This document shows, in pieces, positions 37,565 through 59,408 of a stretch of DNA of 64,000 nucleotides. This DNA is from Escherichia coli. GTDB taxonomy: Bacteria; Pseudomonadota; Gammaproteobacteria; Enterobacterales; Enterobacteriaceae. The stretch lies in NCBI RefSeq assembly GCF_030384885.1, contig NZ_CP128613.1; one strand, given 5' to 3'. Numbering within the stretch: the first letter of the stretch is position 1; each line of letters starts with the position of its first letter. The position numbers and the translations under genes are program-made. Below the pieces are notes generated by a model that saw only the letters and a list, made by a program, of their open reading frames with translations, was not told where the DNA came from and searched no databases.

Positions 37565-37574
37565 CGGCTGCTCC

Positions 37575-40021: not shown

Positions 40022-40029
40022 TGGAGATT

Positions 40030-40056
40030 GCCGGATGCGGCGCATCCGGCACTTTT
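40030..40056 (+). terminator. phoE terminator
   Basis: GCCGGATGC-GGC-GCATCCGGC hairpin then ACTTTTC. Confidence 0.5.
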
Positions 40057-40059
40057 CAC

Positions 40060-40518
<459 letters not shown>

Positions 40519-41763
40519 TTAACACAATCGTTTTTCGATCCAGCTCGTGATTTCCTGAAGACCTTTGTCAAAATTCCGATACACGGGGTTAAACGGAATC
40601 TCTAACAATTTACCATCAGCAGATGATGAGGTGATTAAGCGAGAGTCCTCTTCCGGGCTGAACGGATCGTTCTTCCAATAGCCTGATAACATTGGCGTTG
40701 GGCAGCGACGGCCCAGCAATCCTTGCACTTTTAATGAATAACGATTCAGTTCCACACGCAACGCTTCATCGGAAGCATCATGCATCCCCAAACGACTCGC
40801 CAGAACGTCAAGATACATTTCCGGCACCTGTTGCTGGCACTTAAAATCACTCAACAGGGTATGAACTACCGGACCAAGACAGGCAACCGCTTTCAGACGC
40901 GGCGATTCAAGATATGCCAGACGCACAGCAACGTTAGCGCCAAAACGGAAACCAAAGGCCGCGACACGGGTGTGATCCACCCACGGGACGTTAGGCAGCG
41001 CCTTTAAGACGTGCTGATGCAACAGGCTGGAGTCCTGGGTGAGCTTCCATTTTGAAGAAAAGCCCACCGACGGCATATCAATAGTCAGCATCGCAATGCC
41101 GCGCGGGGCAAAATAACGTTCATACAGACTGTAATAATCCGTCTGCATCGCATCCAGACCACCACACATTAATACCGTCGGGAACGGGCCATCGCCTTTC
41201 GGCATATGCAAAAAGCCGGTGATGGGCGCACCGCCTGGTACGGTAAACTCCATCTGCCGCATCGTGCCCGGCAGACGTTGGGCGGCCTCTTCATAGGCAC
41301 GGTTTGACAAAGCCTGCGCTTGCTCGGCCAGGTCATCCCCTTTCAGATGAGGATAGGCGGCAATGTTGTACAACGTGGCCGCATGCAGCCAGTGACGACC
41401 ACTGAGTTGTGGATCTTCTTCCGCACAAGCTTTTTGTTGCCACACCATCGCCTGGGTGGCCCATTCATAAATCCAGTTGCCGCCGCGGTAGCCAATCACC
41501 GTATCGTATAAATCATCGTCGGTACGTTCAGCATCGCTCATCACAATACGCGCCTGAACGTCGAGGATTTCACGTGGGTCAATGCCGCGCCAGATCCACA
41601 TCAGACGGTTTATCATGCGATACCAGTGGGGGATGGTTTTACCATCAAGGGCCGACTGCACAGGCGGTTGTGCGCCGTGATTAAAGCGGCGGACTAGCGT
41701 CGAGGTTTCAGGATGTTTAAAGCGGGGTTTGAACAGGGTTTCGCTCAGGTTTGCCTGTGTCAT
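40519..41763 (-). CDS. frsA: fermentation/respiration switch esterase
   Basis: 414-aa ORF recognised. Confidence 0.95.
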
Positions 41764-41854
41764 GGATGCAGCCTCCAGAATACTTACTGGAAACTATTGT
41801 AACCTGCCTGAAGTTAAAAAGAACAACGCCCGGCAGTGCCAGGCGTTGAAAAGA

Positions 41855-42313
41855 TTAGCGACCGGAGATTGGCGGGACGAATACGACGCCCATATCCCAC
41901 GGTTGTTCAATCCAGGTATCTTGTGGGATATCAACAACATAATCATCAACCAGCGGACGACCTGCCGGTTTAGCGAAGATGGTGACAAAGTGCGCTTTTG
42001 GATACATTTCACGAATCGCAACTGCAGTACCGCCGGTATCCACCAGATCATCAATAACGATGAAGCCTTCGCCATCGCCTTCTGCGCGTTTCAGCACTTT
42101 AAGCTCGCGCTGGTTGTCGTGATCGTAGCTGGAAATACAAACGGTATCGACATGACGAATACCCAGTTCACGCGCCAGTAACGCACCCGGTACCAGACCG
42201 CCACGGCTTACGGCAATAATGCCTTTCCATTGTTCAGAAGGCATCAGTCGGCTTGCGAGTTTACGTGCATGGATCTGCAACATGTCCCAGGTGACGATGT
42301 ATTTTTCGCTCAT
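41855..42313 (-). CDS. gpt: xanthine-guanine phosphoribosyltransferase
   Basis: 152-aa ORF recognised. Confidence 0.95.
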
Positions 42314-42573
42314 GTGAAGTGTCCCAGCCTGTTTATCTACGGCTTAAAAAGTGTTCGAGGGGAAAATAGGTTGCGCGAGATTATAGAGATCTGACGCACT
42401 AAAAACCAGTATTTCACATGAGTCCGCGTCTTTTTACGCACAGCCTCTCCCTGACGCGGGATAAAGTGGTATTCTCAAACATATCTCGCAAGCCTGTCTT
42501 GTGTTGACAACATTTTCTGCTAACCCTGTGACCTGCAATACTGTTTTGCGGGTGATCGACAAGGAGACTTAAC

Positions 42574-44031
42574 GTGTCTGAACTGTCTCAATTATCTCCA
42601 CAGCCGCTGTGGGATATTTTTGCCAAAATCTGTTCTATTCCTCACCCGTCCTATCATGAAGAGCAACTCGCTGAATACATTGTTGGTTGGGCAAAAGAGA
42701 AAGGTTTCCATGTCGAACGCGATCAGGTGGGTAATATCCTGATTCGTAAACCTGCTACCGCAGGTATGGAAAATCGTAAACCAGTCGTCTTGCAGGCCCA
42801 CCTCGATATGGTGCCGCAGAAAAATAACGATACCGTGCACGATTTCACTAAAGATCCTATCCAGCCTTATATTGATGGCGAATGGGTTAAAGCGCGCGGT
42901 ACCACGCTGGGCGCGGATAACGGCATTGGTATGGCCTCTGCACTGGCGGTTCTGGCTGACGAAAACGTGGTTCACGGCCCGCTGGAAGTGCTGCTAACCA
43001 TGACCGAAGAAGCCGGTATGGACGGGGCGTTCGGCTTACAGAGCAACTGGTTACAGGCTGACATTCTGATTAACACCGACTCCGAAGAAGAAGGTGAAAT
43101 CTACATGGGTTGTGCTGGGGGTATCGACTTCACCTCCAACCTGCATTTAGATCGTGAAGCCGTTCCGGCTGGTTTTGAAACCTTCAAATTAACCTTAAAA
43201 GGTCTGAAAGGCGGTCACTCCGGCGGTGAAATCCACGTTGGCCTGGGTAACGCGAACAAACTGCTGGTGCGCTTCCTTGCGGGACATGCAGAAGAACTGG
43301 ACCTGCGTCTTATCGATTTCAACGGCGGCACACTGCGTAACGCCATCCCGCGTGAAGCCTTTGCGACCATTGCTGTCGCAGCTGATAAAGTCGACGCGCT
43401 GAAAACGCTGGTGAATACCTATCAGGACATCCTGAAAAACGAGCTGGCAGAGAAAGAGAAAAATCTGGCCTTGTTGCTGGACTCTGTTGCGAACGATAAA
43501 GCTGCCCTGATTGCGAAATCTCGCGATACCTTTATTCGTCTGTTGAACGCCACCCCTAACGGTGTGATCCGCAACTCCGACGTAGCAAAAGGCGTGGTTG
43601 AAACCTCACTGAACGTCGGTGTCGTGACCATGACCGACAACAACGTAGAAATTCACTGCCTGATCCGTTCTCTGATCGACAGCGGTAAAGACTACGTGGT
43701 GAGCATGCTGGATTCGCTGGGTAAACTGGCAGGCGCGAAAACCGAAGCGAAAGGCGCATATCCTGGCTGGCAGCCGGACGCTAATTCTCCGGTGATGCAT
43801 CTGGTACGTGAAACCTATCAGCGCCTGTTCAACAAGACGCCGAACATCCAGATTATTCACGCGGGCCTGGAATGTGGTCTGTTCAAAAAACCGTATCCGG
43901 AAATGGACATGGTTTCTATCGGGCCAACCATCACCGGTCCACACTCTCCGGATGAGCAAGTTCACATCGAAAGCGTAGGCCATTACTGGACACTGCTGAC
44001 AGAACTGCTGAAAGAAATTCCGGCGAAGTAA
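42574..44031 (+). CDS. pepD: cytosol non-specific dipeptidase (aminoacyl-histidine dipeptidase)
   Basis: 485-aa ORF recognised. Confidence 0.95.
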   Translation: MSELSQLSPQPLWDIFAKICSIPHPSYHEEQLAEYIVGWAKEKGFHVERDQVGNILIRKPATAGMENRKPVVLQAHLDMVPQKNNDTVHDFTKDPIQPYIDGEWVKARGTTLGADNGIGMASALAVLADENVVHGPLEVLLTMTEEAGMDGAFGLQSNWLQADILINTDSEEEGEIYMGCAGGIDFTSNLHLDREAVPAGFETFKLTLKGLKGGHSGGEIHVGLGNANKLLVRFLAGHAEELDLRLIDFNGGTLRNAIPREAFATIAVAADKVDALKTLVNTYQDILKNELAEKEKNLALLLDSVANDKAALIAKSRDTFIRLLNATPNGVIRNSDVAKGVVETSLNVGVVTMTDNNVEIHCLIRSLIDSGKDYVVSMLDSLGKLAGAKTEAKGAYPGWQPDANSPVMHLVRETYQRLFNKTPNIQIIHAGLECGLFKKPYPEMDMVSIGPTITGPHSPDEQVHIESVGHYWTLLTELLKEIPAK

Positions 44032-44041
44032 TTACAATAAT

Positions 44042-44071
44042 GTCCACGCCTGCGGGCGTGGACTACTGTTT
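44042..44071 (+). terminator. pepD terminator
   Basis: GTCCACGCC-TGCGG-GCGTGGAC hairpin then T-rich tail. Confidence 0.5.
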
Positions 44072-44078
44072 GAAGCCA

Positions 44079-44321
44079 ATGGCTATCTATATCGAAATAA
44101 CAAAACATTATGAAACTCATGAAAAGGTCGCATATTTATATAGCTGCGACCATATTTCATGGGGAGAATTTCTGATCACCAAAGAAAGTTTTGCGCTGGA
44201 ATCCGTGAAAGAACTTAAGGGTGAAAAGCAGAATTTTTATATGTTCAGAGCCTGGGGCAAAGTCAGGAAAACATACTTAGCCACGGGAGAATTTCCCCAG
44301 GAAACATGTTACGCCGCTTAA
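44079..44321 (+). CDS. hypothetical small protein (low confidence)
   Basis: About 80-aa AT-rich ORF after pepD terminator; no motif. Confidence 0.2.
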   Translation: MAIYIEITKHYETHEKVAYLYSCDHISWGEFLITKESFALESVKELKGEKQNFYMFRAWGKVRKTYLATGEFPQETCYAA

Positions 44322-44329
44322 AGTCAGAA

Positions 44330-44854
44330 TCATTTTTTCACGCGTTTTACATTTACCATTTTAGCATTACGCCTGCACCACATGGCAATGGCGGCAGCTA
44401 CTAATGCCAGTTCCAGTAAAAACGACCAGTGTAATAAAAAATTGAGCCACCACGGATGATGTACCGCCGTAATATGAAAGAGTGCAAAGGGTTGGTTAAC
44501 GAAAGGCATCAACCACCAGATATCACCGACCAGCGTATCAAGCAACAAATGCACAATACCATTCAGGCAAAACACCACGCCCAGCCACGCCGGAAGTTTA
44601 TTCTTCGCAATTGCGGCCCAGACTAATGTCGCCGCCAGCAGAGCAAACCATAATAATGGCCAATGAGACGGGTAAAGATGATGATGTCGTTGCCCGTTAT
44701 CCACCAGATAACACCAGAAGAGATCAAAATCGGGTGCAACGGCCCCGACTAAGCCAATAACCATCGCCCACCGCGCATGACGAGAAATCAGCGGTAGGCG
44801 TTTCACTAAAGTACAAGTTATTAAATATCCAGCCGGAAGATGACCGATAAACAT
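44330..44854 (-). CDS. membrane-bound metal-dependent hydrolase-like protein (YdjM/DUF457-like)
   Basis: Hydrophobic His-rich ORF; start chosen at Met with AAAGGA RBS (alternative Met at 44869). Confidence 0.55.
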   Translation of the reverse strand: MFIGHLPAGYLITCTLVKRLPLISRHARWAMVIGLVGAVAPDFDLFWCYLVDNGQRHHHLYPSHWPLLWFALLAATLVWAAIAKNKLPAWLGVVFCLNGIVHLLLDTLVGDIWWLMPFVNQPFALFHITAVHHPWWLNFLLHWSFLLELALVAAAIAMWCRRNAKMVNVKRVKK

Positions 44855-44916
44855 GACGAATCCTTTCATTTTTGCCCGCCGCTTTCACGAAGAAAACGGC
44901 GGGTGACATTCCTCTA

Positions 44917-45531
44917 TTACACAGCGATAAAAGCCATCCCTGTAAACGTCCGTCGCGGGTTGCCACGTTCAATCTGGTGATGGAACATTCGCCGCTGCGA
45001 TTTCAGCGCCGCGCTATTTTCCTGTCGCTGTTGTTCCAGCTTCCAGGCAATCAGTAATCGCGCCAGCCGTTTGTTAGCATGCTGGCTGCGCTCTGACTGA
45101 ACCTTCACGCTAATCCCGGATGCCAGATGCGTGGCGCGTACCGCCGAGTCGGTTTTATTGACATGTTGACCGCCCGGCCCCGACGAACGCAGCGTCTCAT
45201 AATGGATCGCATCGGATTGCTCCTGCTCATCTGAAGTAAAACGCCCAATGCCCAGAAACCAGTTTTTGCGCCCATGATGAGGGCGATACGGACTCGGACA
45301 AATCCACTGGATAGTGCCACACCAGCTTTCGCTTAGTGCCCATGCGTTGTCGCCATCAAGTGAAACCAGCGCCGAACGCAGTGTGTCAGAGTAGCGACCC
45401 GTTTCTGTTTCCAGCACCGTTACCGCGACGTCTTGTCGGGCAGCTTCTTTAATCAGCCTGTCCAGTGCCTTTTTCACTGCGAGACAACATTCTTCCGGCC
45501 CCTGAGCTGAGGAGAGTTGTAGCAAGATCAT
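44917..45531 (-). CDS. prfH: peptide chain release factor homologue PrfH
   Basis: 204 aa from MILLQ; contains [16 protein letters not shown] (GGQ motif); start overlaps rtcB stop (ATGA). Confidence 0.85.
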
Positions 45532-46667
45532 CCTTTTTTCCCTCCACTGTTTTTGAGCGTCAGCACCGGACGCAGTCGCGCGACAGGAATAATTAAACCG
45601 GCCTGCACCAGACATTGCACCACACTTTCAGCCGATTTATAGGCTTGTGGCGCTTCTTCAAAGATGAGTTGTTTATCGCGACAAATTACCCGACTGCCAA
45701 GTTCAGTACGTGAGAGTTGCGTCGCCGTGTGTTTCGCTGCCAGACGCCCTTTACACTCGGTGCGCCCCCATTTACGCCCTGCCCCATGCGCCAGCGAGTG
45801 GAGCGTTTTTTCGTTCGCAACAGGCTTAACCAGCCAGGAGTAATCACCGCGTGAACCGGGAATAATCACCAGACCGTTGTCATCCGGCGTAGCCCCTTTA
45901 CGGTGTAACCATCCTTGTTGATCGCCGATTCGACATGCGCTAACAAAGTTATGCGCCACATCCAGAACCGAATTTCCGTTGGCCTTAACTTGTTGCATTA
46001 TGCGCAAAGCGATCAGCTGGCGATTAATACGCGCAAACGCCAGCGCATCGTCATGTTCCGCAATATACCGTAGCGCGTCGTCACTGCCTTGAGGCAAACC
46101 ATGATGCGAAAACGAGGCAATATGCCGCTGTAAAATAGACTGCCCCAGCCCCCTCGAGCCGCTATGAACCAGCAGTTGCAGATGCTGCGCATCCAGACCT
46201 GCCAGTGCAAACAGTTCCGCGTCGATGATTTGATCAACTTTTTGCAGTTCTGCGAAGTGGTTTCCGCCACCGATAGAGCCAAGCGCGCAGCGCCACGGAT
46301 GCTGTGCAAACGCTGACGGCAGGTTTTCCTCCAGCCAGCTTTCTTCAGCAACGTCATCCAGCGCAGATAATCGCTTTTCAAACTTATCGGCGTTGTATTT
46401 ACGCGCGAGAATATCTGTTTGCCATAGCGCCATGCCGCAGCCGATATCATTGCCGACCAGTGCCGGGTAAAAACGGCCTACGGAGAAGAACGCTGCGCCA
46501 ATCGGATAGCCGCGTCCGGGGTGTAAATCTGGCATCCCTACTACGCGTTGCATGTCGGGTAAATTTGCCGAGGTGTGTAATTGTTGGATCGCTGAACTCT
46601 CGATCCACAGGTCATCAGATGCGATGGTAAATACCGCATCGGATAAGGGACGAATATATTTGCCCAT
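45528..46667 (-). CDS. rtcB: RtcB-family RNA ligase paired with PrfH (RtcB2-type)
   Basis: 379-aa ORF with RtcB-like His/Cys metal-site motifs (..GGNHFAE.., ..HSGSRG.., ..AHGAGR..); translationally coupled to prfH. Confidence 0.8.
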
Positions 46668-46671
46668 GTAT

Positions 46672-46770
46672 CATTCCATTTATACTCGTCATACTTCAAG
46701 TTGCATGTACTGCGACTGCGTTCGTTCACCCCAGTCACTTACTTTAGTAAGCTCCTGGGGATTCACTCGC
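46672..46770. repeat. ERIC/IRU element
   Basis: Reverse complement reads GTGAATCCCCAGGAGCTTAC.AAGTAAGTGACTGGGGTGAACGAACGCAG..ATGCAACTTGAAGTATGACGAGTATA, matching the ERIC consensus from memory. Confidence 0.65.
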
Positions 46771-46984
46771 TTGTCGCCTTCCTGCAACTCGAATTATTTA
46801 GAGTATATAAATATAAAAATCAAGAAATGGCAGACGAATCCAGGGCAAGAAAAAAAGAATTAATCCTGGAAAGGTCTGCAAAGAGTCATTGATAAAGGAT
46901 TTTTCATGATTTACCTCCTTGCAGTTTGTGGAATAAGAAAACGCGCACATATTAGGCGGGCGTTATTTTCATTGCAAGCTGGAT

Positions 46985-47437
46985 TTAGTGTTGCGGTTTA
47001 TATCGCATATGAAAATTAGTAAACCACGCTCCCCGGCATTCAACGCGCTGCTGCTTAACTGTCTGAAAACCATAACGTTCAAAAAAGGGTTTTGCGGTTA
47101 TGCTGGCATCTACCGTAAGTTCGGATTCAGACTTAATCAAAGGTTTTAACAAAGCGCTGGCAACCCCGCAGCGGTTGTATTTCGGATCAACAAATAACAT
47201 ATCGATATAATGCTCAATGCAGGTAATAAAGCCGACCAGTTGTGTATTAATAACCGCAACCCGCACTTGTGATTTCGCGAGTTTCTCTTTCCATCGATGT
47301 TCATCAATCTGCGCCCAGGCGGCAATTTGTTGTGGTGAATAATGCTGACTAGCGGTCATCGTAACCGCTCTAATAAAAATAGCGCATAGTTGCTGAAAAT
47401 CGCCAGGCTGATAGTTCCTTATTTGTATATTATTCAT
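46985..47437 (-). CDS. yafP: GNAT-family acetyltransferase
   Basis: 150-aa ORF; start overlaps dinB stop. Confidence 0.85.
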
Positions 47438-48489
47438 AATCCCAGCACCAGTTGTCTTTCCATTTGCGGATCAAGCAACGTCACATGCAGCCCCACCAGT
47501 CGCACACCGCGCCCGCCACGGCGTTCATCCCAGGTTTTACGCGCAGTGGCGATCAAGTCAGCTTTATTCAGCCGCGGCCAGACGTGTTCCTGGGTGGTTT
47601 GCTGAAAATCGTCGAACTTTAATTTCACCCCCTGGCGGGCAATCAGTAAATCAGGTTTTACCTTTGCCAGACGACGTTCAAGTTCCGGGTACAACCGCTC
47701 GATGATCGCTTCACATTCAGACCAGTGATGAATATCTTCCGCCATCGTGCGTTCTACACCGACGGATTTTCGCAACCTTTCGCTGTTAACGTCGCGCTCG
47801 TCAATGCCCTGACTACGCTCCCACAAAATGCGGCCAAATTTGCCAAAGCGTTTAAGCAATGTCACCAGATCACACTTTTGTACATCGCCGCAGGTTCGTA
47901 GCCCCATCGCTTCCAGTTTTGCCGCCGAGACTTTGCCGACACCGGGAATTTTTGCCAGCGGTAAGGTTTGCAGAAATGCCGGAACTTCTGCTGGCGTAAT
48001 CACAAACTGACCGTTGGGTTTATTCATGTCTGAGGCGATTTTGGCGAGAAACTTGACCGGCGCAACGCCCGCAGACGCCGTCAGTTGCAGCTCGTTGAAG
48101 ATCGTCTGGCGGATTTCCTGAGCGATAAGGGTCGCAGAGCCGTGGCAATGGACACTATCGGTGACGTCGAGATAGGCTTCATCCAGTGACAGCGGCTCAA
48201 TACGCGATGTGTAGCGAGAGAAGATTTCGCGGATATGATTTGACGCTTCTTTGTAGGCGTCAAAGCGCCCTGGAAGCAAGGTGAGATGCGGACACAGTTT
48301 GAGCGCCATGCCGGTTGGCATTGCGCTACGCACGCCAAATTTACGCGCAGGATAATTGGCGGTGCTGATCACCCCCCGGCGTTCGCGGCTGCCGCCAATA
48401 GCAATAGGGATATCGCGCAGGGCGGGATTGTCGCGCATCTCCACCGCGGCGAAAAAGCAGTCCATATCCACATGAATGATTTTACGCAT
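47434..48489 (-). CDS. dinB: DNA polymerase IV (Y-family)
   Basis: 351-aa [29 protein letters not shown]... Confidence 0.95.
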
Positions 48490-48503
48490 TGCTCACCTCT
48501 CAA

Positions 48504-48523
48504 TACTGGTAAAGTATACAGTG
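48504..48523 (-). promoter_or_regulatory. LexA (SOS) box of dinB
   Basis: Minus strand reads CACTGTATACTTTACCAGTA (CTGT-N8-ACAG class) 15-35 bp upstream of dinB start. Confidence 0.7.
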
Positions 48524-48559
48524 ATTTCAGAGTTTGAGAAATGCGTAAAGATTCAGCAT

Positions 48560-49138
48560 TTAACGCGTTCGCTGCGAAAGCACCTGCTGCTTATCCAGCT
48601 TTTTCACCAACGGCTGCACCACTTTATCGCCATGCTGACCAAAATATTGATACAACGTATCGGACGCGCTTTTGGTGAGCACCATAATCTCAATGCGCCG
48701 ATTGCCCGCGCTTTGTGGATTTTTGGCATCCAGCAGCATCTGGTCCGCCATTGCGCTCACCCGCGCTTCGCCCTGTAACACCGGCTGCAACTGGCGGTCC
48801 ACCGCGCCGCCGGAAAGTGCGGTGCGTTTGTCCAGCATCTGCGTGAGCGCCGTACCCTGCGCCTGCCCGCTCTTACGCTGGCTATGACGATAATCGAGCA
48901 ATTGCTGCTCCAGTTGCCCGAGATAGTGATCCGCCTGCTGCAACGTGGTGAGCTGATCGTTAAGCTGCACGCTGTAACGCTGCGGGCGAGTGGTAATCAG
49001 CGGCGAGGCCGGATATTCACTCGCCGTCGCCGGGAGCTTTTGCCGCACCGCCTGAGTGGGCGCAACGGTTGACGACGATACCGCAGCGCTATGCGCGCCG
49101 CCGGTGGCGAGTGATGAAGATGTAAGTCCGACCTGCAT
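48560..49138 (-). pseudogene. remnant ORF carrying a MotB/OmpA-type C-terminal motif (LafU/MbhA-like), probably a deletion-fusion product
   Basis: 192-aa ORF ending ..NRRIEIMVLTKS.. (OmpA-like peptidoglycan-binding signature) but lacking MotB N-terminal TM region; sits where the flagellin/motor (laf) cluster would be. Confidence 0.45.
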
Positions 49139-49154
49139 ACTGTTCCTGAAAGAG

Positions 49155-50084
49155 TTAGAGAACGCTGAACAAATTCAACTCACTCACCTTCGAGTAAGTC
49201 TTGAGGGTAGCTTCCATTGCCACTTCCAGTCCGGTAAAGGTGATCGACGCCGGGCCGTAATCGAGATCCTGCAATGAACCAATCAACTCATCATTAGAGG
49301 TAGAGATATCGGTCTGCGCATCGCTCAGCATCGACATGGTGTTTTGTGTCTCGCCGAGCGACGCAATCGAGGCGTTGAGGTCGTCCGAGGCGGTGTCCAC
49401 CACATTAACGGCGTTTTGAATATCGCTTTGTACCTGCGGATCTGCCGGGTCAACGTTAGGGTTTTGCAACTCCTGCGACAGGGCATTGAGCGTGTTGAGC
49501 ACATCTAAATTGCTGCCAAAGAAATCGCTCGCCGCCACGTTGGTGTCTACTTCGACGCCGTTCGACACCGTAGTCTGGCGATGGTCGCTGTTACCCTGAT
49601 AGCTGTAGCGATCGGTCACGCCATCACCGTCATCGTCCACCGCCACAATCGGCGGTTGATCGTTGATAGTGCCGCCAAAGACGTAATGCCCGTCTTCATC
49701 CTGATAGTTGAGCGCCGCCACCATCGATTCGGTTAGCGACTCAATATCCTGACCGAGGCTTGCCAGCGAATCGGCGGTATTGGTGCCGTTCGCTGCTTCC
49801 AGCAGGTCGTCGCGCACCGCCAGCAGGCTGTTGTTGACGCCATCAAGAATGGATTCCTGCTGGCTTAAGCCCGCCGACGCGGAGTCGATATTGCTCTGAT
49901 ACTGCTCAATCGCCGACTGCTGGCGGTTCAACTGGGTGATACGTGTGGCGGCGATAGGATCATCCGATGGCTGCAAAATTTCCTTGCCGGTTGCCATCTG
50001 CTCGACCACGTGCGCCAGTTCGCCAGAAAGATTATTAAAACTTTGCGTCATCGAGACGTAGGTTTGTTGGGTGGTTACTCGCAT
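49155..50084 (-). CDS. lfgL: flagellar hook-associated protein 3 (lateral system)
   Basis: FlgL-like N-terminus from MRVTTQQ; flagellin-type terminal helices. Confidence 0.8.
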   Translation of the reverse strand: MRVTTQQTYVSMTQSFNNLSGELAHVVEQMATGKEILQPSDDPIAATRITQLNRQQSAIEQYQSNIDSASAGLSQQESILDGVNNSLLAVRDDLLEAANGTNTADSLASLGQDIESLTESMVAALNYQDEDGHYVFGGTINDQPPIVAVDDDGDGVTDRYSYQGNSDHRQTTVSNGVEVDTNVAASDFFGSNLDVLNTLNALSQELQNPNVDPADPQVQSDIQNAVNVVDTASDDLNASIASLGETQNTMSMLSDAQTDISTSNDELIGSLQDLDYGPASITFTGLEVAMEATLKTYSKVSELNLFSVL

Positions 50085-50098
50085 TTTCGCGCTCCCGC

Positions 50099-51475
50099 TT
50101 AGCTGCACATTTCCAGCACCGAATCAAAAATCTCGGCCCCGGCGGAAATGACTTTCAGATTGGCTTCATAAATTTGTTGATAGGTGATCAGGTTCACCGC
50201 CTCTTCGTCCATGCTGACGCCGCTGACGCTGCTCTGCTGGTTTTGCGCCTCAGAATAGACATTGGACGCAGCGGTCACTTCGGTCTGGTTTTGCTGAGTG
50301 TAAATGCCAATATTGCTGATGATCGACGAGCACGCTTGCCCGACCGTCACGCTGCCGAGGTTGGCTATCTCCAGCGGCTCAGTGGAGATGTTGATCAGCG
50401 CCTGCAGGTTGTCGCTGTTGCCGCTTTCGTCCGGCGAACTGGAGAACGCCAGTTCATCGGCGGTGATATCCGGGTTAACGGTCAGCGGGCCATCGGCATT
50501 ACTGGCATCGTAAATAAACAGCGGCTCGCCGGGGTTACCGTTGAGATCATAGCCCTGCGCCAGCTGATTGTTGACCGCATCGGCGAACTGCGACGCCATG
50601 CTGTTGATGGTGTCGGTCAGCGGCGTCAGCACGTCGTTTTGATAATCAAAAAGTGCGCCTAATGAACCGCCGGTATCGGTGGTCATGGTCGAGGTCGTTC
50701 CGGCAAAGGTCAGTGTCATCGTTGGCGTGCCATCGGCGTTGGTTTCCAGCGCGATGGTCGAACTTTGCTGCCCGCTCACCAGCGGCTGACCGTTTTGCAG
50801 GGTGACGTTGTAGTTGCCCTGGTCGTCGATATTGACCTGCACATCCATCATTCCGCTGAGTTCTTCCACCATCTGATCACGAGCGTCATACAGCGCGGAG
50901 GCGTTATCACCGTTGGCTTCGGCCTGGGCGATTTGCTGGTTATAGCTGGCGATGCCGCTGGTGAGCGTATTGATTTGCGACACCATCGCCTGCTGCTGGC
51001 TGATGATTTCTGTGCTTTGCGAGTCGATGTAATCGAGCGTGTTATCGATACGCAACGACAGCGCCCCGGCTTCGCTGATCACCTGCTCGCGCAGGGCAGA
51101 ATCATCGGGGCTGGTGGTCGCTTCGTTGAGGGCCGCGAAAAAGTTATCGAACCCGCCGCTCAGGCTACTGTTATCGTCGCTCAATACCGCTTCCAGTTGC
51201 GTGAGATACCCTTGCTGGGTGTTGTAATAGCCGTAATCGCTGGCGGCATACCACACCTGATTCACCTGATACTGGTTGGAGACGCGACGAATGCTGTCCA
51301 CCTGTACACCGTTTCCGGCGCTGTTCGGCGAACCGCCGCTGGCACCGATGGTGCTGATCTCCGCCACCTGGCGGGTGTAGCCCGTGGTCATGGCGTTAGC
51401 GGTGTTTTGCGCCGTGACGTTCAGCTCCACCTGCGCCGTTGATGCGCCGCTGTAGCCGATGTTAATCATGTCCAT
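50099..51475 (-). CDS. lfgK: flagellar hook-associated protein 1 (lateral system)
   Basis: 458-aa ORF; FlgK-like N-terminus ..AQNTANAMTTGYTRQ.. Confidence 0.85.
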   Translation of the reverse strand: MDMINIGYSGASTAQVELNVTAQNTANAMTTGYTRQVAEISTIGASGGSPNSAGNGVQVDSIRRVSNQYQVNQVWYAASDYGYYNTQQGYLTQLEAVLSDDNSSLSGGFDNFFAALNEATTSPDDSALREQVISEAGALSLRIDNTLDYIDSQSTEIISQQQAMVSQINTLTSGIASYNQQIAQAEANGDNASALYDARDQMVEELSGMMDVQVNIDDQGNYNVTLQNGQPLVSGQQSSTIALETNADGTPTMTLTFAGTTSTMTTDTGGSLGALFDYQNDVLTPLTDTINSMASQFADAVNNQLAQGYDLNGNPGEPLFIYDASNADGPLTVNPDITADELAFSSSPDESGNSDNLQALINISTEPLEIANLGSVTVGQACSSIISNIGIYTQQNQTEVTAASNVYSEAQNQQSSVSGVSMDEEAVNLITYQQIYEANLKVISAGAEIFDSVLEMCS

Positions 51476-51544
51476 GTTGGATCCTTACCGGTAAATCGTG
51501 CCGGATAAAAGCGGCGTGAAGTTGGGGATTCTTAAGTTCCGTAA

Positions 51545-51895
<351 letters not shown>

Positions 51896-51896
51896 C

Positions 51897-52196
51897 TCAT
51901 TTATGCTTCGGCGACAACTGCTTCACAATCATCGCCGCGATCCCTATCCCGTGCTGCTGCGCCAGGGTGTTACACAACTCATCGTCATAAAACCCCTGCA
52001 TCATGCGCACCGAATCGCTGTTAAATGGGTTATCTTTCGAATCAAACAACTCGTTGGTTTTACGCATCTCTTTCAGCATGTTGCGTAAAAAAATCGCCTC
52101 AAACTGTTCGGCGGCCTGCTTAATATCATTGGCCTGAACCTTCGGCCCCATTAACGCATCGCTGCCGTCAATCCCGCCGCTGGCGTTGACTTTCAT
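51897..52196 (-). CDS. lfgJ: FlgJ-like rod-binding protein, short form without muramidase domain
   Basis: 99-aa ORF; ..QFEAIFLRNMLKEMRKT.. aligns with FlgJ N-terminal rod-binding domain. Confidence 0.7.
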   Translation of the reverse strand: MKVNASGGIDGSDALMGPKVQANDIKQAAEQFEAIFLRNMLKEMRKTNELFDSKDNPFNSDSVRMMQGFYDDELCNTLAQQHGIGIAAMIVKQLSPKHK

Positions 52197-53296
52197 CAGA
52201 TCACCTCCAGGTCGGCATCCAGCGCGCCCGCTTCATGCAGCGCCTGCAAAATCGACATAATGTCGTCCGGCGTTGCGCCTAAACTGTTCAGCGCATTGAC
52301 CAGCGTTTTCAGGCTGCTCGACTCCGGCAAACTCACCACGCCCGGACGGGCATGATTCACCGCGATATTGCTCTGCGGCGTTACCGCCGTACGCCCGCCC
52401 GCAAAGGCATTCGGCTGGCTGACGTTGCTGGTTTCGTTAATTGAGACGGTCAGGCTGCCGTGCGACACCGCCGCCGCGTGCAGCGCGATGCCATCGCCCA
52501 TCACCACCGTACCGGTACGCGAGTTAAACACCACGCGGGCGCGGATTTTCTCCGCCTGCACCTGCACATCATCCAGTTGCGACATAAACGCCACCCGCGC
52601 GCCGGGGCTGGTGGGCGCACGCACGGTGACGTTGGTGGAACTCTGCGCCGTGGCAATGCCGCCAAACGAAGCGTTGATCGCCGCCGCAATGTTGTTGGCG
52701 TCTTTAAACGACGGGCGTTTCAGGTTAAGCGTGATGGTGTCGCCCATCTGAAAATCGCTGGGGATTTCGCGCTCCACCGTCGCGCCATTGGGGATTAACC
52801 CGGCGGTCGGCGTATTAACCGTTACGCTCGAGCCGCTGGCCCCGGTGGCATTCATCCCGCCCACCACCACACTTCCCTGCGCCAGGGCATACACTTCGCC
52901 ATCTGCGCCGTGCAACTGGGTCAGCAGCAAGGTGCCGCCGCGAATACTTTTGGCATCGCCAATCGACGAGACGGTGACATCAATAGTCTGCCCACGCGAG
53001 TACATCGGCGGCAACGTGGCGCTCACCGCCACCGCGGCGACGTTTTTCACCTTCGGGTCGATTTTATTTGGCAACTGCACGCCAAACTGGCGCAGCATAT
53101 TGGTGATGGTCTGGTTGGTGAATTTGACCTGGTTTTTATCGCCCGTACCGTCGAGGCCGACCACCAGGCTGTAGCCGACCAGTTGGTTTTCACGCACGCC
53201 CTGTACGTTGACCAGCGACTCCAGCGATTGCGCCAGCGCCACGCCAGGTAGCGCCAGGCTTACGGCTACCATCACCGTTTTTATCCAGTTTTGCAT
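52196..53296 (-). CDS. lfgI: flagellar P-ring protein
   Basis: FlgI-like; start at Met with GGAGAG RBS giving signal peptide [22 protein letters not shown]. Confidence 0.9.
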
Positions 53297-53310
53297 TGCA
53301 CTCTCCGGCA

Positions 53311-53976
53311 TTAAATCGGGAACAGAGGATGGTTAAACAGCCGGGTCAGCCAGCCTGCGGCGTTGGCGTCGCTTAACGCGCCACGTCCGGCATAGGAGAT
53401 ACGGGCGTCGGCGATCCGCTGGGAAGAAACCGAGTTGTCATTCTGGATATCGTCGGCGCGCACCAGGCCGCTTAAGCGGATGTACTCATCGCCCTGATTG
53501 AGGGTGAGCCATTTCTCGCCGCGAATTTCCAGGATGCCGTTGGGCTGCACCGCATGGACGGAAACAGTGATCTCCCCGCGCAGACTGTTCTGCTGCTGGG
53601 ACGTGGCGCTGCCGTCAAAGTCGCGGTTGGCGTCGATGGAGCCGGAGAGGTTATTTTTGGTGTGACCAAATACCGTTGGCGCGGTGATATCGACGCTGTT
53701 GCTTTTGCCGAAATTGGTTTTCGCCTGTTTGCTCGACTGGGTCGATTCTTCGAGGATCACCGTCAGGATATCGCCCACGCGATAAGCCCGCCGATCGGCG
53801 GTTAGCGACCAGTTGTAGCCCGTTTCAAACACGCCCCCGGCACGCCCGTCTGCCGGAGGCGGCGCTTCGGTTTTCGGTGGCGCAAAGTATGCGTCGTCTT
53901 TTTTGACCAGAATGGCCTGCGATTCACACCCGCTAAGCAGGGGAAGCAGCGCCACCAGCCAGAGATAATTTTTCAC
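53311..53976 (-). CDS. lfgH: flagellar L-ring lipoprotein
   Basis: 221-aa ORF with lipobox LLSGC. Confidence 0.9.
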
Positions 53977-54045
53977 GTTCTGCCTGTTTAGTGTTGCAGG
54001 CCACGGGGTGGCCGGTTGTTTGGTGGGTTGGAGCGGGTTTGTTCC

Positions 54046-54158
54046 CCCTCACCCTAACCCTCTCCCCAAAGGGGCGAGGGGACCGATCGAGCGCGTTTTT
54101 ACATCGTGCTCCACTTTTCTCCCTCTCCCTGTGGGAGAGGGCCGGGGTGAGGGCATCA
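54046..54158. repeat. about 112-bp GC-rich palindromic intergenic repeat, copy 1
   Basis: Terminal inverted motifs CCCCTCACCC...GGGTGAGGG and internal hairpin CCCTCTCCC-TGT-GGGAGAGGG; reverse complement of copy at 61282-61392. Confidence 0.65.
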
Positions 54159-54179
54159 GGCCGCACCGCCCTTAACGCC

Positions 54180-54965
54180 TTACAGCGTCTGACTGATGTA
54201 CTGCAACATATCGTCCGCCGCCGACACCATTTTGGCGTTCATCTCGTAGGCACGTTGCACCGTAATCATCGCCACCATTTCGTTGACGATATCCACGTTC
54301 GAGCCTTCGAGCGCATTGTCCTGCAAGGTGCCAAGCCCATCTTCGCCCGGTACGCCTTCGGTCGGCTGACCGCTGGCGGCGGTTTCCAGATAGAGGTTGT
54401 CACCCTCGGCAGAAAGCCCCGCCGGGTTGGCGAAGTTGACCAGCGTCAGTTGCCCTAACTCGGTCACGTCGCTGTCGCCAGGTAAGATAGCCGTCACCGT
54501 GCCGTCCTCACCAAACGCAACATTCGTCGCCCCCGCCGGAACGTCGATTTCCGGCTGTAACGGCAAGCCCTGCGAGTTGGTCAGCACGCCGTCGGCGTTC
54601 ACCTGCAAGTTGCCGTCGCGGGTATAGGCGATATCGCCGTTGGCCTTTTGCACCTGCAAAAACCCCTGCCCCATAATGGCGACATTCATCGCGTTGTCGG
54701 TGGTTTCGACGTTGCCTTCGGTAAAGGTTTTCTGAGTGCCGACAATGCGCACGCCGCTACCGAATTGCAGCCCGGTCGGCATGATGTTGTTCTGGTCGAG
54801 CATCGCGCCCGGCGCTTCCTGGGTCTGGTAGAACAGATCCTGAAACATCACCCGGTCGCGCTTGAAGCCGGTGGTGTTAACGTTGGCGATGTTGTTGGCA
54901 ATCGCGCTCATTTCAGCATCCTGCGCCGAGAGGCCGGTTTTGCTGATCCATAATGCTGCGTTCAT
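54180..54965 (-). CDS. lfgG: flagellar distal rod protein
   Basis: 261 aa from MNAALWISKTGL; ORF-track extension upstream runs into a REP element. Confidence 0.85.
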   Translation of the reverse strand: MNAALWISKTGLSAQDAEMSAIANNIANVNTTGFKRDRVMFQDLFYQTQEAPGAMLDQNNIMPTGLQFGSGVRIVGTQKTFTEGNVETTDNAMNVAIMGQGFLQVQKANGDIAYTRDGNLQVNADGVLTNSQGLPLQPEIDVPAGATNVAFGEDGTVTAILPGDSDVTELGQLTLVNFANPAGLSAEGDNLYLETAASGQPTEGVPGEDGLGTLQDNALEGSNVDIVNEMVAMITVQRAYEMNAKMVSAADDMLQYISQTL

Positions 54966-54984
54966 GGTGGTAAATTCCGTGTTA

Positions 54985-55140
<156 letters not shown>

Positions 55141-55143
55141 CGG

Positions 55144-55881
55144 TTACGAGCCGCGCAATAAGCGGTTGCCCGCGTCGCTGATATCTTCGGCGGTTTTCAT
55201 CATTTTGATCTGCGCTTCAAACTGGCGGTTCATGGCGATGGACGACATCATTTCGCTCACCGCCGAGACGTTGCTGCCCTCGAGAAAACCGCCGCTGACT
55301 TTGATGTTTTCATCACGCTGGGCCGGAACGCCGTCGCTAGTCACCAGCATCCCTTCAGGATTTTTCGCCAGGTTAGCAACCGGGATATCCACCAGCTTCA
55401 GGCGGTCGATATCCATCGTGGCGGTCACGTCACCGTCATCGGGCGTCACCGACAGCGTGCCGTCGCTGCCAAACGAGGCAATGGCGTTCGGCGGCAGAAT
55501 GATCGGGCCGTTATCCCCCAGTACCAGATTGCCGTCGATGGTCAGTTGCCCCTGATCGTCCTGCTGAATGTTGCCGTTGCGGGTATAAACTTCGTTGCCG
55601 TTTTTATCCTGCACCGCAATGTAACCCGCCCCCTGAATCGCCACGTCCAGCGGGCGTTCGGTTTTCTCCGCCACACCCGTGCTGTCGTTCACGCCGCTGG
55701 CCCCTTCCTGCGCCATATAGCGCGTGTCGAAGCCGCCGCCTTTCACCTTGTCGTTGGTCGCCATCGCCATATCGGCGCGAAAACCGTTGGTGTTGACGTT
55801 CGCCAGGTTGTTGGCGCTAATTTGCTGCTCGTACAACGTCTGAGAAGCCCCGCTCAGGGCGGTATAAATCAAGCGATCCAT
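55144..55881 (-). CDS. lfgF: flagellar proximal rod protein
   Basis: 245-aa FlgF-like ORF; start overlaps lfgE stop. Confidence 0.9.
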   Translation of the reverse strand: MDRLIYTALSGASQTLYEQQISANNLANVNTNGFRADMAMATNDKVKGGGFDTRYMAQEGASGVNDSTGVAEKTERPLDVAIQGAGYIAVQDKNGNEVYTRNGNIQQDDQGQLTIDGNLVLGDNGPIILPPNAIASFGSDGTLSVTPDDGDVTATMDIDRLKLVDIPVANLAKNPEGMLVTSDGVPAQRDENIKVSGGFLEGSNVSAVSEMMSSIAMNRQFEAQIKMMKTAEDISDAGNRLLRGS

Positions 55882-57083
55882 TACATTGCCTGGAACAGCG
55901 CGTCATCGAGCTGTGTGCTGGTGGCGATAACTTTGGTGTTGGCCTGATAGTTACGCTGGGCGGTCATCAGGTTAACCAGTTCGCTGGTGATATCGACGTT
56001 AGAGCTTTCGAGCACACCGGACGACAGCGTGCCGCAGGTGCCGGAGCCGGGAACGCCAATCAGTGGCGTGCCGGATTCCCCGGTTTGTACCCATGCGGTG
56101 CCGCTCACTGCCTCCAGGCCGTTTTCATTCGGGAAAGTCGCCAGCACCACTTGGCCCTGCAACATGCGCTCGCCGTTGCTGTAGGTGGCGTAAACTTTGC
56201 CATCGTCATCAACCTGCACACCGTTTTGCGTGGCGGAAGCGTAACCGTTGGCGGAGTTGGTGGTGACAGAAAATTCAGAACCGTATTGCGTACAGGTGGA
56301 GTAATCGACGGTCAAATCGATGGGCGCGGCGGCGTCGGTCTGAAACTCAATGGTCTGCGGCGTAGTTGGCGAGGTCAGTTTTCCGGTATTCGGGTCGAAG
56401 GTTAAGGTCGTCGCCGGAACACCAGTCTGCTGCTGACCGTCGAAGGTGTACTGCACTTCCCAGGTGTTATCGCTGGTTTTGGTGAAGTACTGGCATACCG
56501 AGTGTTCGTTACCTAATGAGTCATACACCGTGGTGGTGTAGCTGTCGGTGTACGAACTGCTGTTGGTCGGATCGAACGGCACGGTAGTGCGGTCGATAGC
56601 GTCGTCACTGGCATCGAAGTTGGCGGTAAAGGTCAGGCTGCTGCTGGCCTGCGCCGGGATATTGCCGGTTTTGATCTGGATATCCGTCACCGTACCGGTT
56701 TGCAAAGTGCCGCTGTCATCGACCGGATAGCCCTGCAAATAAGCGCCCGAGGCGTTAACGATATAGCCGTCTTTGTCCGTTTCAAACGATCCGGCGCGGG
56801 TATAAGAGATGTTGCCTGCGCTGTCGCACATCACAAAAAAGCCGTCGTCGTTAATCGCCAGATCCAGCGCATTACCGGTGGAGACCAGCGAACCGCCGCG
56901 CGAAATACTTTGCGCGGTGCCCGCCACGCTGACGCCCATTGCCTGGCTTCCGGCATACATGGCTGAAAACTGGGTAGTCATCGACTTATACCCCACCGTT
57001 CCGGCGTTAGCGATGTTGTTACTGATCCCGTCCAGCTGTTCGTTAACGGCATTCAGCCCCGTTGCGGCAATTTCATAACTCAT
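55881..57083 (-). CDS. lfgE: flagellar hook protein
   Basis: 400-aa FlgE-like ORF. Confidence 0.9.
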   Translation of the reverse strand: MSYEIAATGLNAVNEQLDGISNNIANAGTVGYKSMTTQFSAMYAGSQAMGVSVAGTAQSISRGGSLVSTGNALDLAINDDGFFVMCDSAGNISYTRAGSFETDKDGYIVNASGAYLQGYPVDDSGTLQTGTVTDIQIKTGNIPAQASSSLTFTANFDASDDAIDRTTVPFDPTNSSSYTDSYTTTVYDSLGNEHSVCQYFTKTSDNTWEVQYTFDGQQQTGVPATTLTFDPNTGKLTSPTTPQTIEFQTDAAAPIDLTVDYSTCTQYGSEFSVTTNSANGYASATQNGVQVDDDGKVYATYSNGERMLQGQVVLATFPNENGLEAVSGTAWVQTGESGTPLIGVPGSGTCGTLSSGVLESSNVDITSELVNLMTAQRNYQANTKVIATSTQLDDALFQAM

Positions 57084-57106
57084 TGTTTCTTCCTGTTAAT
57101 TGATTC

Positions 57107-57820
57107 TTACGCCACATCACTGTCGGCATCGGGTACGCCAAACTGGCTAATCATGGTGAACGGCACTTCGCCCACACCTGCAACGTTGAGCACCGGAGAG
57201 CTGCCGTCGAGCGGGATACGTACATCCTCCACTTCGCCGGAGACTTCAATCGGTACCTCTTCTTCCCCGGTGTTGGTCACCACCGAAACGTCGTAATCAC
57301 CCGGCGGGATGCCGTAATCCGCCGGATTAATCGAGAAATCAACCTGGCCTGGTCCAACCGACGAACTCCCTTCCGGGATCAGCGAGACGGTGTAGTCATC
57401 GCCCGCGGCATCGGTAAAGTGGAGTTCGGCGGTGGTACAGGCGTCGTCCAGTGTGGCGCGACCGTTAATGGTCTGGTCACTCACCTGCAAGGCGGTGGTC
57501 TGCACCATAATGTCGTCGCCCACCAGGTTGCCGAGCGCCATCACCTGAATGTTGCTCATCAGCACCGCGTTGGTATTGGCCTGCACGCTCATCTCTTCCA
57601 TCATCGCCACCTGCGCCATCGACGAAAGCTGGTCGATATATTCGGTGGCATCGGTCGGGTCGGTCGGGTCCTGGTTTTGGATCTCGGCGACAAACAGCGT
57701 CAGGAAAGTATCGACGGGCGAGCTATCGCTGCTGCTTGTCGTGTCGCTGGCCGCCACGTTGTTGCTTTCCGCCGTGGCGGTCGGCTGCGGCGATTGCGCA
57801 TTCAGCGCCAGGGTATTCAT
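57107..57820 (-). CDS. lfgD: flagellar hook capping/assembly protein
   Basis: 237-aa FlgD-like ORF. Confidence 0.85.
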   Translation of the reverse strand: MNTLALNAQSPQPTATAESNNVAASDTTSSSDSSPVDTFLTLFVAEIQNQDPTDPTDATEYIDQLSSMAQVAMMEEMSVQANTNAVLMSNIQVMALGNLVGDDIMVQTTALQVSDQTINGRATLDDACTTAELHFTDAAGDDYTVSLIPEGSSSVGPGQVDFSINPADYGIPPGDYDVSVVTNTGEEEVPIEVSGEVEDVRIPLDGSSPVLNVAGVGEVPFTMISQFGVPDADSDVA

Positions 57821-58251
57821 CAGGCTTCTCCCAGTTTCAGCAGGCTTTGCTGCATACTTTTCACGTTGTTGAGCACATCGACATTGGTTTCAAAATCGCG
57901 CGAAGCCGACATCATGTCCGCCATCTGTTCCACCACGTTGACGTCGGGATACCAGACATCGCCGTTGGCATCCGCCAGCGGCGAATGCGGTTCATAGCGT
58001 TTCAGCGCCCCGCCGGTTTGCAGCACGTCCTGCACCTGCACGCTGGCGCCGTCAATGGCATGACGATGCGTTCCCGCCAGCAAACTGTGGTGATACACCG
58101 CGGCAAACACCGGGCTGCGTGCTTTATACGCCTGCGCCTCGCTGCTGGCGGGCGCATTGGCATTCGCCAGGTTACTGGCGACGGTATTCAGACGCAGCGT
58201 TTGCGCCGTCATCGCCGAGCCGGAAATCTGATAGATATCAGTAAATGACAT
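57820..58251 (-). CDS. lfgC: flagellar proximal rod protein
   Basis: 143-aa FlgC-like ORF. Confidence 0.9.
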   Translation of the reverse strand: MSFTDIYQISGSAMTAQTLRLNTVASNLANANAPASSEAQAYKARSPVFAAVYHHSLLAGTHRHAIDGASVQVQDVLQTGGALKRYEPHSPLADANGDVWYPDVNVVEQMADMMSASRDFETNVDVLNNVKSMQQSLLKLGEA

Positions 58252-58253
58252 GC

Positions 58254-58589
58254 TTATTTCCCTTCAATGGCCTCTCTGATACCGCTGATTTGCAGATTCA
58301 GAAAGGTCAGACTGCTTTGATAATCCATACTATTTTGTGAAAACCGCGCCTGTTCGCTGTTCAGTTCCACGGTGTTACCATCTTCCGACGGCTGCATCGG
58401 CACGCGGTACTGCACATCCACCGCCGCGTTATTTGCCCGTTGCATCTCCCTGGCAAAATCAATATCTTTAGCCTTGAAATTTGGCGTATCGACATTCGCC
58501 AGATTCGCAGTCAGTAGCTCGGTCCTCTCAAGACGTAACTTCACTGCCTGCGGATGTACTCCCAATGCTTGCTGAAAACTGATCCCCAT
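58254..58589 (-). CDS. lfgB: flagellar proximal rod protein
   Basis: FlgB-like; start at MGISFQQ because a sigma-54 promoter occupies the longer ORF's first codons. Confidence 0.8.
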   Translation of the reverse strand: MGISFQQALGVHPQAVKLRLERTELLTANLANVDTPNFKAKDIDFAREMQRANNAAVDVQYRVPMQPSEDGNTVELNSEQARFSQNSMDYQSSLTFLNLQISGIREAIEGK

Positions 58590-58624
58590 TTCTTGCGTCA
58601 CTCCCGCTTCAATCCGCATACGCT

Positions 58625-58641
58625 AAGCAATCGCTGTGCCA
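58625..58641 (-). promoter_or_regulatory. sigma-54 (-24/-12) promoter for lfgB operon
   Basis: Minus strand reads TGGCAC-AGCGA-TTGCT, exact -24 GG / -12 GC spacing. Confidence 0.55.
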
Positions 58642-58670
58642 ATTTTTAAGTGACTGATGAGAAAGGGTTT

Positions 58671-59408
58671 ATGAGTTTTCAATTTTGCAGGCGGAAGTTG
58701 TATTTCCTCCTGGCGCTGGCCTTACCGGGCTACGCCGCCGTCCATCCCGTGCAACATAGCGCGCGGGAACAAGTCAACGCCCAGGTGCTGAATGCCGCGA
58801 GCCAGCAGATTGAATCGCTGGCGCAACAGCGGCAGTGGCATGACTATCGCTACACCTTTAAGGTCTACATTCCCTCGCAGATTGCGACCGCCGCGCCCTG
58901 CGCTACGGCCCCCGGCGTCACGCTGACTTCGCCTGCGGAAATCGCTCTCAACCGGATGAACTTCACCGTCAGTTGCCCGCAAAGCTGGCAGATGAACGTT
59001 GCGGTGCGCCCGGATGTTCTGGTGCCGGTGGTGATGGCGAAGTCACTGGTTGCCCGCGATACGCCGCTCACGGCAAATGATGTGGAGCTGAAGCCCTACA
59101 ACGTCAGCGCCCAGCGGCGGGATGTGCTGATGGATCTCAATGAAGCGATTGGTTTAAGCAGCAAACATGCCCTGCAACCAGGCAGGCCGCTTACCAAAGA
59201 AGAACTGGTTTCGCCAGTGCTGATCGAGCGCGATCAGCCGGTGATGATTGTTTACCAGAGCGCGGGGATCACCGCCTCGATGCCCGGCGTGGCGCTGAAA
59301 AATGGTCGCAAAGGGGAAATGGTGAAAGTACGTAACGCCAGCAGTCAGCGGGTCATTAGCGCAATAGTGGCGGAAAGCGGCGTGGTGACAACGGTAAGCG
59401 CGGAGTAA
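58671..59408 (+). CDS. lfgA: flagellar P-ring assembly chaperone
   Basis: FlgA-like ORF, signal peptide from internal Met; divergent from lfgB. Confidence 0.75.
   Translation: MSFQFCRRKLYFLLALALPGYAAVHPVQHSAREQVNAQVLNAASQQIESLAQQRQWHDYRYTFKVYIPSQIATAAPCATAPGVTLTSPAEIALNRMNFTVSCPQSWQMNVAVRPDVLVPVVMAKSLVARDTPLTANDVELKPYNVSAQRRDVLMDLNEAIGLSSKHALQPGRPLTKEELVSPVLIERDQPVMIVYQSAGITASMPGVALKNGRKGEMVKVRNASSQRVISAIVAESGVVTTVSAE

Follow-up and report, generated by a model that had tools for sequence, protein, structure and literature searches.

The window, that is, the whole 64,000-nucleotide stretch of Escherichia coli DNA that was analyzed, contains a short flgJ gene, lfgJ, embedded among the rod and hook genes of a Flag-2 locus, a secondary flagellar locus of the lateral type. 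The features of the region that enter into the analysis are listed below.

48560..49138, minus strand: fusion ORF consisting of the 5' part of lafW and the last 58 codons of lafU, with its junction at 48757-48761 (BLASTN and LafU profile)
50099..51475, minus strand: lfgK, hook-associated protein 1 homologue, the next gene downstream of lfgJ (ORF and SMS-3-5 annotation)
51557..51910, no strand given: three tandem 118-nt REP/BIME-type units in the lfgJ-lfgK spacer (repeat search)
51897..52196, minus strand: lfgJ, single-domain (rod-binding only) FlgJ homologue of Flag-2 (99-aa ORF)
52196..53311, minus strand: lfgI, P-ring protein FlgI homologue, directly upstream of lfgJ (ORF and SMS-3-5 RefSeq annotation)
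52204..52208, minus strand: Shine-Dalgarno motif GGAGG, 7 nt 5' of the lfgJ ATG and within the 3' end of lfgI (read from the sequence)
53311..59408: remaining rod/hook block, with lfgH, lfgG, lfgF, lfgE, lfgD, lfgC and lfgB on the minus strand and lfgA on the plus strand (ORF lists compared with SMS-3-5)

According to the ORF map and the sequence, lfgJ starts with ATG and ends with TGA. This ATG and the stop codon of lfgI have one base in common (TGATG), and because of this overlap translation of lfgJ is probably coupled to that of lfgI; the primary flgI/flgJ pair of strain K-12 has a one-base overlap too. The FlgI protein of the window is 62% identical to the lateral FlgI of Plesiomonas and 47% identical to the primary FlgI of K-12. 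lfgJ occupies the flgJ slot between flgI and flgK, an order which is common to Citrobacter rodentium, to a more distant Flag-2-like locus (L005), to Plesiomonas and to Photobacterium. The spacer between lfgJ and lfgK measures 421 bp and is filled by the REP/BIME units, two of which are 84% and 74% identical to the first one, and the last unit covers the final 14 nt (3' end) of lfgJ. In E. coli SMS-3-5 the same REP-filled spacer of ~420 bp is present, and a 1-kb query including the array found a median of 29 matching places per E. coli genome.

The ORFs of the rod/hook block are intact, have about the same lengths as the SMS-3-5 genes and are collinear with them at 93-96% identity in BLASTN. 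REP-like sequence was also seen 5' of lfgG (~55040-55100), and it accounts for false upstream GTG starts among the listed ORFs. Between lfgH and lfgG, ~186 bp (53990-54177) are not found in SMS-3-5. Within them are two GC-rich palindromes of the 'ccctctcccc...gggagaggg' type that resemble a small dispersed intergenic repeat.

The domain content of LfgJ was analyzed by profile searches. The Pfam profile Rod-binding (PF10135) matched with an E-value of 3.1e-14 and 53.7 bits (gathering score 25.1), and the alignment comprised LfgJ residues 42-93 and the whole profile (1-51). No domain besides PF10135 was detected in the Pfam scan and Glucosaminidase (PF01832) was absent; all positive controls for PF01832 (P0114 through P0234) were found at E<=1e-31. 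With TIGR02541, the NCBIfam model of dual-domain FlgJ, LfgJ reached 68.1 bits, which is below the cut-off of 193, and the match was confined to profile positions 20-91 of 294. In BLASTP, residues 22-98 of LfgJ aligned with residues 30-102 only of the 313-aa K-12 FlgJ (34% identity over ~77 residues). The original prediction had described a FlgJ of 99 aa that consists of the rod-binding domain alone and lacks the C-terminal muramidase domain of the primary FlgJ, and had proposed a domain search for rod-binding versus glucosaminidase domains. Both statements hold: the ORF lies exactly at 51897-52196, PF10135 is its sole domain, PF01832 is missing, and the alignment with K-12 FlgJ does not extend beyond 30-102. 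LfgJ thus belongs with the single-domain FlgJs and not to the dual-domain TIGR02541 family.

Within the protein, the conserved residues F32, E33, R45, D71, G85 and Q93 do not vary among the 36 homologues compared. The N-terminus carries no hydrophobic Sec-type segment as seen from its sequence. An AlphaFold2 model, calculated from the 36-sequence alignment, predicts that residues 1-21 are disordered and are followed by three helices, albeit with low confidence (pLDDT 61). When a solved structure of a rod-binding domain was sought by sequence search, the best match was an unrelated protein with an E-value of 0.25.

From ~48.5 kb to its end the window is collinear with the Flag-2 locus of SMS-3-5 (93-97% DNA identity). 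The locus is found at the Flag-2 site, between dinB and the fli genes, shows the cluster 2 gene order and adjoins dinB/lafU. Comparison with the SMS-3-5 locus (L001) revealed that window positions 47434-48761 correspond to L001 7007-8334 and window positions 48757-53990 to L001 17358-22590, so that ~9 kb are gone. This stretch contains motA, the gene of a FliA-type (sigma-28-type) factor, fliL, fliK, fliS, fliD, lafA, a regulator and most of lafU. At the junction lies the 192-aa fusion ORF, residues 126-183 of which correspond to LafU profile positions 240-297 of 297; lafW, which provides the 5' part, is the unnamed gene adjoining flgL. Most E. coli carry the classic lafU-lfhA deletion of Flag-2, from which the lafU-lafW deletion described here is distinct. 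The junction at 48757-48761 was spanned in none of 5426 complete E. coli genomes. Flag-2 comprises a complement of 39 conserved genes (De Maayer et al., 2020), which in this genome is incomplete by the ~9 kb between the 3' end of lafU and lafW. Flag-2 is borne by ~590 Enterobacterales and is reported to be functional in Yersinia enterocolitica W22703. The deletion described here is private to this genome. As judged from the gene content, neither the Flag-2 filament nor the motor would be made here; a working Flag-2 flagellum is precluded, since the flagellin, cap, sigma-factor and motA genes are deleted. In this genome lfgJ is an intact relic within a broken Flag-2 locus, a context that was absent from the original prediction.

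E. coli 2013C-4282 carries the classic Flag-2 deletion, and to the left of the junction the window is nearly identical to this strain (100% identity at 20663-22911 and 99.99% at 36105-48761). This identity ends exactly at base 48761, at the lafU/lafW junction, and to the right of it the best E. coli match drops to ~97%. Recombination, or else independent deletions among closely related strains, might explain why the break in homology coincides with the deletion junction. The ~13 kb in between (22912-36104), which adjoin tRNA-Thr (thrW) and proA, are absent from 2013C-4282. Their matches in other E. coli carry the annotations phage terminase, tail sheath and tape measure, and for this reason the ~13 kb probably represent a prophage or a prophage remnant. 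At 46985-48489, yafP abuts dinB both here and in 2013C-4282, and the yafN-yafO toxin-antitoxin pair, which lies between yafP and dinB in SMS-3-5, is missing.

LfgJ is 100% identical to WP_000867179.1 of SMS-3-5, which bears the RefSeq name 'rod-binding protein'. The gene was found in ~1130 of the 5426 complete E. coli genomes, with a match counted when at least 80% of the surrounding 1-kb stretch was present. A search of 5.8 billion proteins yielded 104 homologues of LfgJ from Escherichia, Citrobacter, Leclercia, Scandinavium, Dryocola and Pseudescherichia, all of which, fragments aside, have a length of ~95-134 aa. Beyond the Escherichia/Citrobacter group, the nearest non-fragment relatives in an exhaustive representative search measure 103-132 aa, those with names being from Buttiauxella, Enterobacter ludwigii and Tatumella. 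Orthologues of LfgJ are thus short down to ~40-50% identity. The LfgJ of C. rodentium has 104 aa, and the spacer following its gene is 99 bp long and without a REP array. Relative to C. rodentium, a dN/dS of 0.068 was determined for lfgJ, comparable with that of the neighboring genes lfgI, lfgH and lfgK (0.04-0.07), and relative to SMS-3-5 dN was 0 and dS 0.13.

A short flgJ next to a repeat array raises the question of whether lfgJ is a mere stump, left over from a longer dual-domain flgJ that a recent frameshift, nonsense mutation or REP/BIME insertion turned into a pseudogene. The arrangement at the locus has some appeal for such a scenario: the 3' end of lfgJ (14 nt) lies within the third 118-nt REP unit, the lfgJ-lfgK spacer is unusually long with 421 bp, and the surrounding Flag-2 locus is decaying in this genome. 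However, when K-12 FlgJ and five other dual-domain FlgJs were used as tblastn queries against the loci of the window, SMS-3-5, C. rodentium and L005, no remnant of a glucosaminidase was detected in any frame at E<=1, and all six queries matched the four loci by their N-terminal ~25-110 residues only; no glucosaminidase-like translation exists 3' of lfgJ or elsewhere in the window. Moreover, the C. rodentium orthologue is just as short (104 aa) despite its REP-free spacer of 99 bp, orthologues down to ~40-50% identity are all short while dN/dS is 0.068, and the identical protein is encoded in SMS-3-5, whose examined Flag-2 stretch does not have the 9 kb deletion. We therefore consider a stump highly improbable, and a truncated or frameshifted longer flgJ is effectively refuted by the tblastn searches, the C. 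rodentium orthologue and the dN/dS value. The original prediction had named a frameshifted longer gene as the finding that would overturn it; the test came out negative, as there is no hydrolase remnant and the short length is kept under purifying selection across genera. The missing remnant, the short orthologues, the REP-free spacer of C. rodentium and the dN/dS of 0.068 argue that the short form is conserved and selected. Based on these comparisons, short LfgJ appears to be the normal, selected architecture in enterobacterial Flag-2 loci and not a truncation.

Whether the short form is ancestral or derived was addressed by comparison with other lateral clusters. The lateral cluster of Plesiomonas shigelloides, which De Maayer et al. 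(PMC7526173) count among the flag-2 loci, is collinear with E. coli Flag-2. In its lfgJ slot (L007 10001-10987) it encodes a FlgJ (FlgJ_L / LfgJ) of 328 aa with both a Rod-binding and a Glucosaminidase domain, which aligns with K-12 FlgJ over 308 residues and with LfgJ over its own residues 25-105 only (36% identity). Since this syntenic lateral/flag-2 gene retains the Glucosaminidase domain, it was reasonable to call LfgJ 'reduced', and, as far as can be read from the genes compared, the most likely origin of the short LfgJ is that its GH73 glucosaminidase domain was lost. Photobacterium aphoticum harbors a collinear lateral cluster with a FlgJ of 173 aa that is rod-binding only (L008 10001-10522). 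Relatedness was gauged by the identities of the neighboring FlgI proteins and not by a tree of the N-domain, because ~75 alignable N-domain residues are too few to resolve the phylogeny. Among the clusters compared, P. aphoticum is closest to Plesiomonas both in FlgI (67.6%) and in the N-domain of FlgJ (57%). A short FlgJ in P. aphoticum versus a dual-domain FlgJ in its nearest cluster, that of Plesiomonas, suggests a separate loss of the hydrolase. From this handful of loci, dual-domain FlgJ is probably ancestral in the lateral/Flag-2 family and the hydrolase was probably lost more than once. No published statement on repeated hydrolase loss in lateral/Flag-2 systems was found in the literature covered (Ren et al. 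2005 lies outside this scope). One tentative explanation, to which we would give rather less than even weight, is that GH73 was lost in enterobacterial Flag-2 and separately in Photobacterium because secondary systems can make use of lytic activity that is already in the cell, be it that of the primary FlgJ or that of housekeeping lytic transglycosylases.

The peptidoglycan step was also considered, as the original prediction had stated that peptidoglycan remodeling for this system must come from a separate enzyme and had proposed a search for a stand-alone lytic transglycosylase near the flagellar genes. In the Flag-2 stretch searched, which in this genome ends with the window and so before the site of Flag-2 cluster 1, no such gene was present. 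Among the unnamed Flag-2 proteins no Pfam or NCBIfam lytic family was matched at E<=0.01, and in the SMS-3-5 Flag-2 stretch no gene is annotated as lytic, its genes being flagellar, regulatory, involved in glycosylation or otherwise non-lytic. In the pepD-dinB interval prfH, an RtcB-family gene, yafP and a metal-dependent hydrolase are encoded. Two genes adjoining the lfhA end, yafL (encoding a C40 peptidase) and dpaA, were considered as partners and rejected, as they also occur in a strain without Flag-2. Hirano and co-workers are said to have found, in 2001, that the N-terminal half of Salmonella FlgJ alone allows weak motility, from which it follows that a dedicated lytic partner is not strictly required. 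A separate remodeling enzyme is a reasonable inference. However, 'must' goes too far and is overstated, given that no lytic match was found in the locus, that the N-terminal half of Salmonella FlgJ suffices for some motility, and that the locus is deleted in part here; owing to the lafU-lafW deletion the question of an enzyme partner is moot in this genome.

It is conceivable that a lytic partner resembling SltF is encoded, so far unrecognized, by one of the uncharacterized Flag-2 genes, e.g. lafW or cargo genes. There are conserved Flag-2 proteins without a family among which it could be sought, namely the 325-aa protein adjoining flgL and proteins of 103, 273 and 179 aa, and in Rhodobacter sphaeroides sltF sits inside a flagellar operon (PMC7277832). 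These proteins, however, match no lytic family of Pfam or NCBIfam at E<=0.01. Plesiomonas, with its hydrolase-bearing FlgJ, also possesses a gene of similar size and without a Pfam match at the lafW-like position adjoining flgL, so that the presence of a lafW-like gene does not track the missing domain. A hidden partner within the locus is therefore very unlikely in our opinion.

Alternatively, an intact Flag-2 system might use the hydrolase half of primary FlgJ or depend in some other way on the primary flagellar system. In favor of this, the hydrolase is missing in at least two separate lateral/Flag-2 branches, the enterobacterial group and P. aphoticum. However, primary FlgJ is exported by a gate of its own and reaches the tip of its own rod, and for this reason it is not expected to act in trans at another basal body. 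Plesiomonas, moreover, has a dual-domain FlgJ in both of its flagellar systems. Two taxa with flag-2 and without flag-1 are described as non-motile (De Maayer et al., PMC6993521), which fits a dependence on the primary system, but one of the two also lacks lafZ (PMC6993521). We regard such a dependence as improbable, if somewhat less so than a lytic partner hidden in the locus. In an intact Flag-2 system the hole in the peptidoglycan would have to come from something encoded outside the locus, for which housekeeping lytic transglycosylases would be the preferred candidates, ahead of the hydrolase domain of the primary FlgJ and, lastly, of pre-existing gaps in the wall.

With respect to its function, LfgJ would be translated together with LfgI and, having no Sec signal, may be exported by the Flag-2 type III apparatus via the N-terminus that is disordered in the model. 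The predicted disordered N-terminus and the three helices are compatible with type III export and with folding upon assembly. At the tip of the growing rod, LfgJ would by analogy form a cap that promotes polymerization of the rod proteins LfgB, LfgC, LfgF and LfgG, and judging from its domain content it would have no enzymatic activity of its own. The steps of export, capping and polymerization are derived from Salmonella FlgJ and from single-domain FlgJs (PMC7277832, PMC8517470, PMC6913195). In Salmonella the minimal functional N-terminal region of FlgJ comprises 151 residues, and LfgJ is shorter with its 99 aa (PMC6913195). In addition, the 112-aa FlgJ of Liberibacter did not complement an Agrobacterium flgJ mutant (PMC6913195). 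In view of these two observations it is no given that 99 aa are sufficient; the size of LfgJ does not guarantee function, and purifying selection argues for it. Taken together, we hold it to be very probable that lfgJ is the Flag-2 FlgJ orthologue, serving as a rod-cap scaffold only, that its short form is selected, and that it persists as an intact relic in this genome.

Part of this was already known, as lfgJ is correctly annotated in RefSeq and the single-domain class of FlgJ is well described. What is mildly new is that lateral/Flag-2 systems seem to have lost the hydrolase domain repeatedly. That a gamma-proteobacterium has a domain-less FlgJ in its secondary system, while close relatives such as the lateral cluster of Plesiomonas have the hydrolase, offers a comparative handle on how the rod passes through the cell wall in the absence of a dedicated enzyme. 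In the genome studied here the point is academic with the genes of flagellin, cap, sigma factor and MotA lost. If repeated loss through reliance on lytic activity already in the cell is true, secondary systems would be natural experiments on the enzymes that replace a flagellum-dedicated autolysin. If instead an intact Flag-2 does depend on the primary flagellum, loss of the hydrolase would mark the reliance of the secondary system on the first system of its host.

Among known systems, the Flag-2 LfgJ of E. coli SMS-3-5 is the closest, being an identical protein with the same placement relative to flgI and flgK. The gene is no different in the two strains, and only the locus of the window has the lafU-lafW deletion. 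In E. coli and Salmonella, the primary FlgJ (313-316 aa) combines a rod cap with a GH73 beta-N-acetylglucosaminidase. Its N-terminal domain is homologous to LfgJ, and both primary flgJ and lfgJ are placed after flgI, but LfgJ lacks the counterpart of residues ~103-313, the whole PF01832 domain included. The lateral FlgJ of P. shigelloides lies in the lfgJ slot as in Flag-2, yet has kept the Glucosaminidase domain.

In R. sphaeroides, a single-domain FlgJ is accompanied by a separate lytic transglycosylase, SltF (PMC7277832). Like LfgJ, the FlgJ of the R. sphaeroides Fla1 system has no muramidase domain, and it acts as a rod scaffold (PMC7277832). SltF is encoded in the flgG operon of R. sphaeroides, whereas the search of the Flag-2 locus yielded no gene of this kind, and from gene content the resemblance to the FlgJ/SltF arrangement thus appears confined to the FlgJ half. 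Rod-binding-only FlgJs like LfgJ are also present in Borrelia burgdorferi, in epsilon- and delta-proteobacteria and in Rhizobiaceae. The single-domain FlgJ of Borrelia is paired with a separate lytic transglycosylase (PMC8517470), and for these single-domain FlgJs in general the lytic function is supplied by separate SLT-type enzymes where it has been studied (PMC8517470; PMC6913195). Single-domain FlgJs are said to occur mostly outside the beta- and gamma-proteobacteria (PMC8517470, citing Nambu et al., 2006). Those short FlgJs belong to primary systems of distant phyla, whereas LfgJ belongs to the secondary system of a gamma-proteobacterium whose primary FlgJ has both domains.
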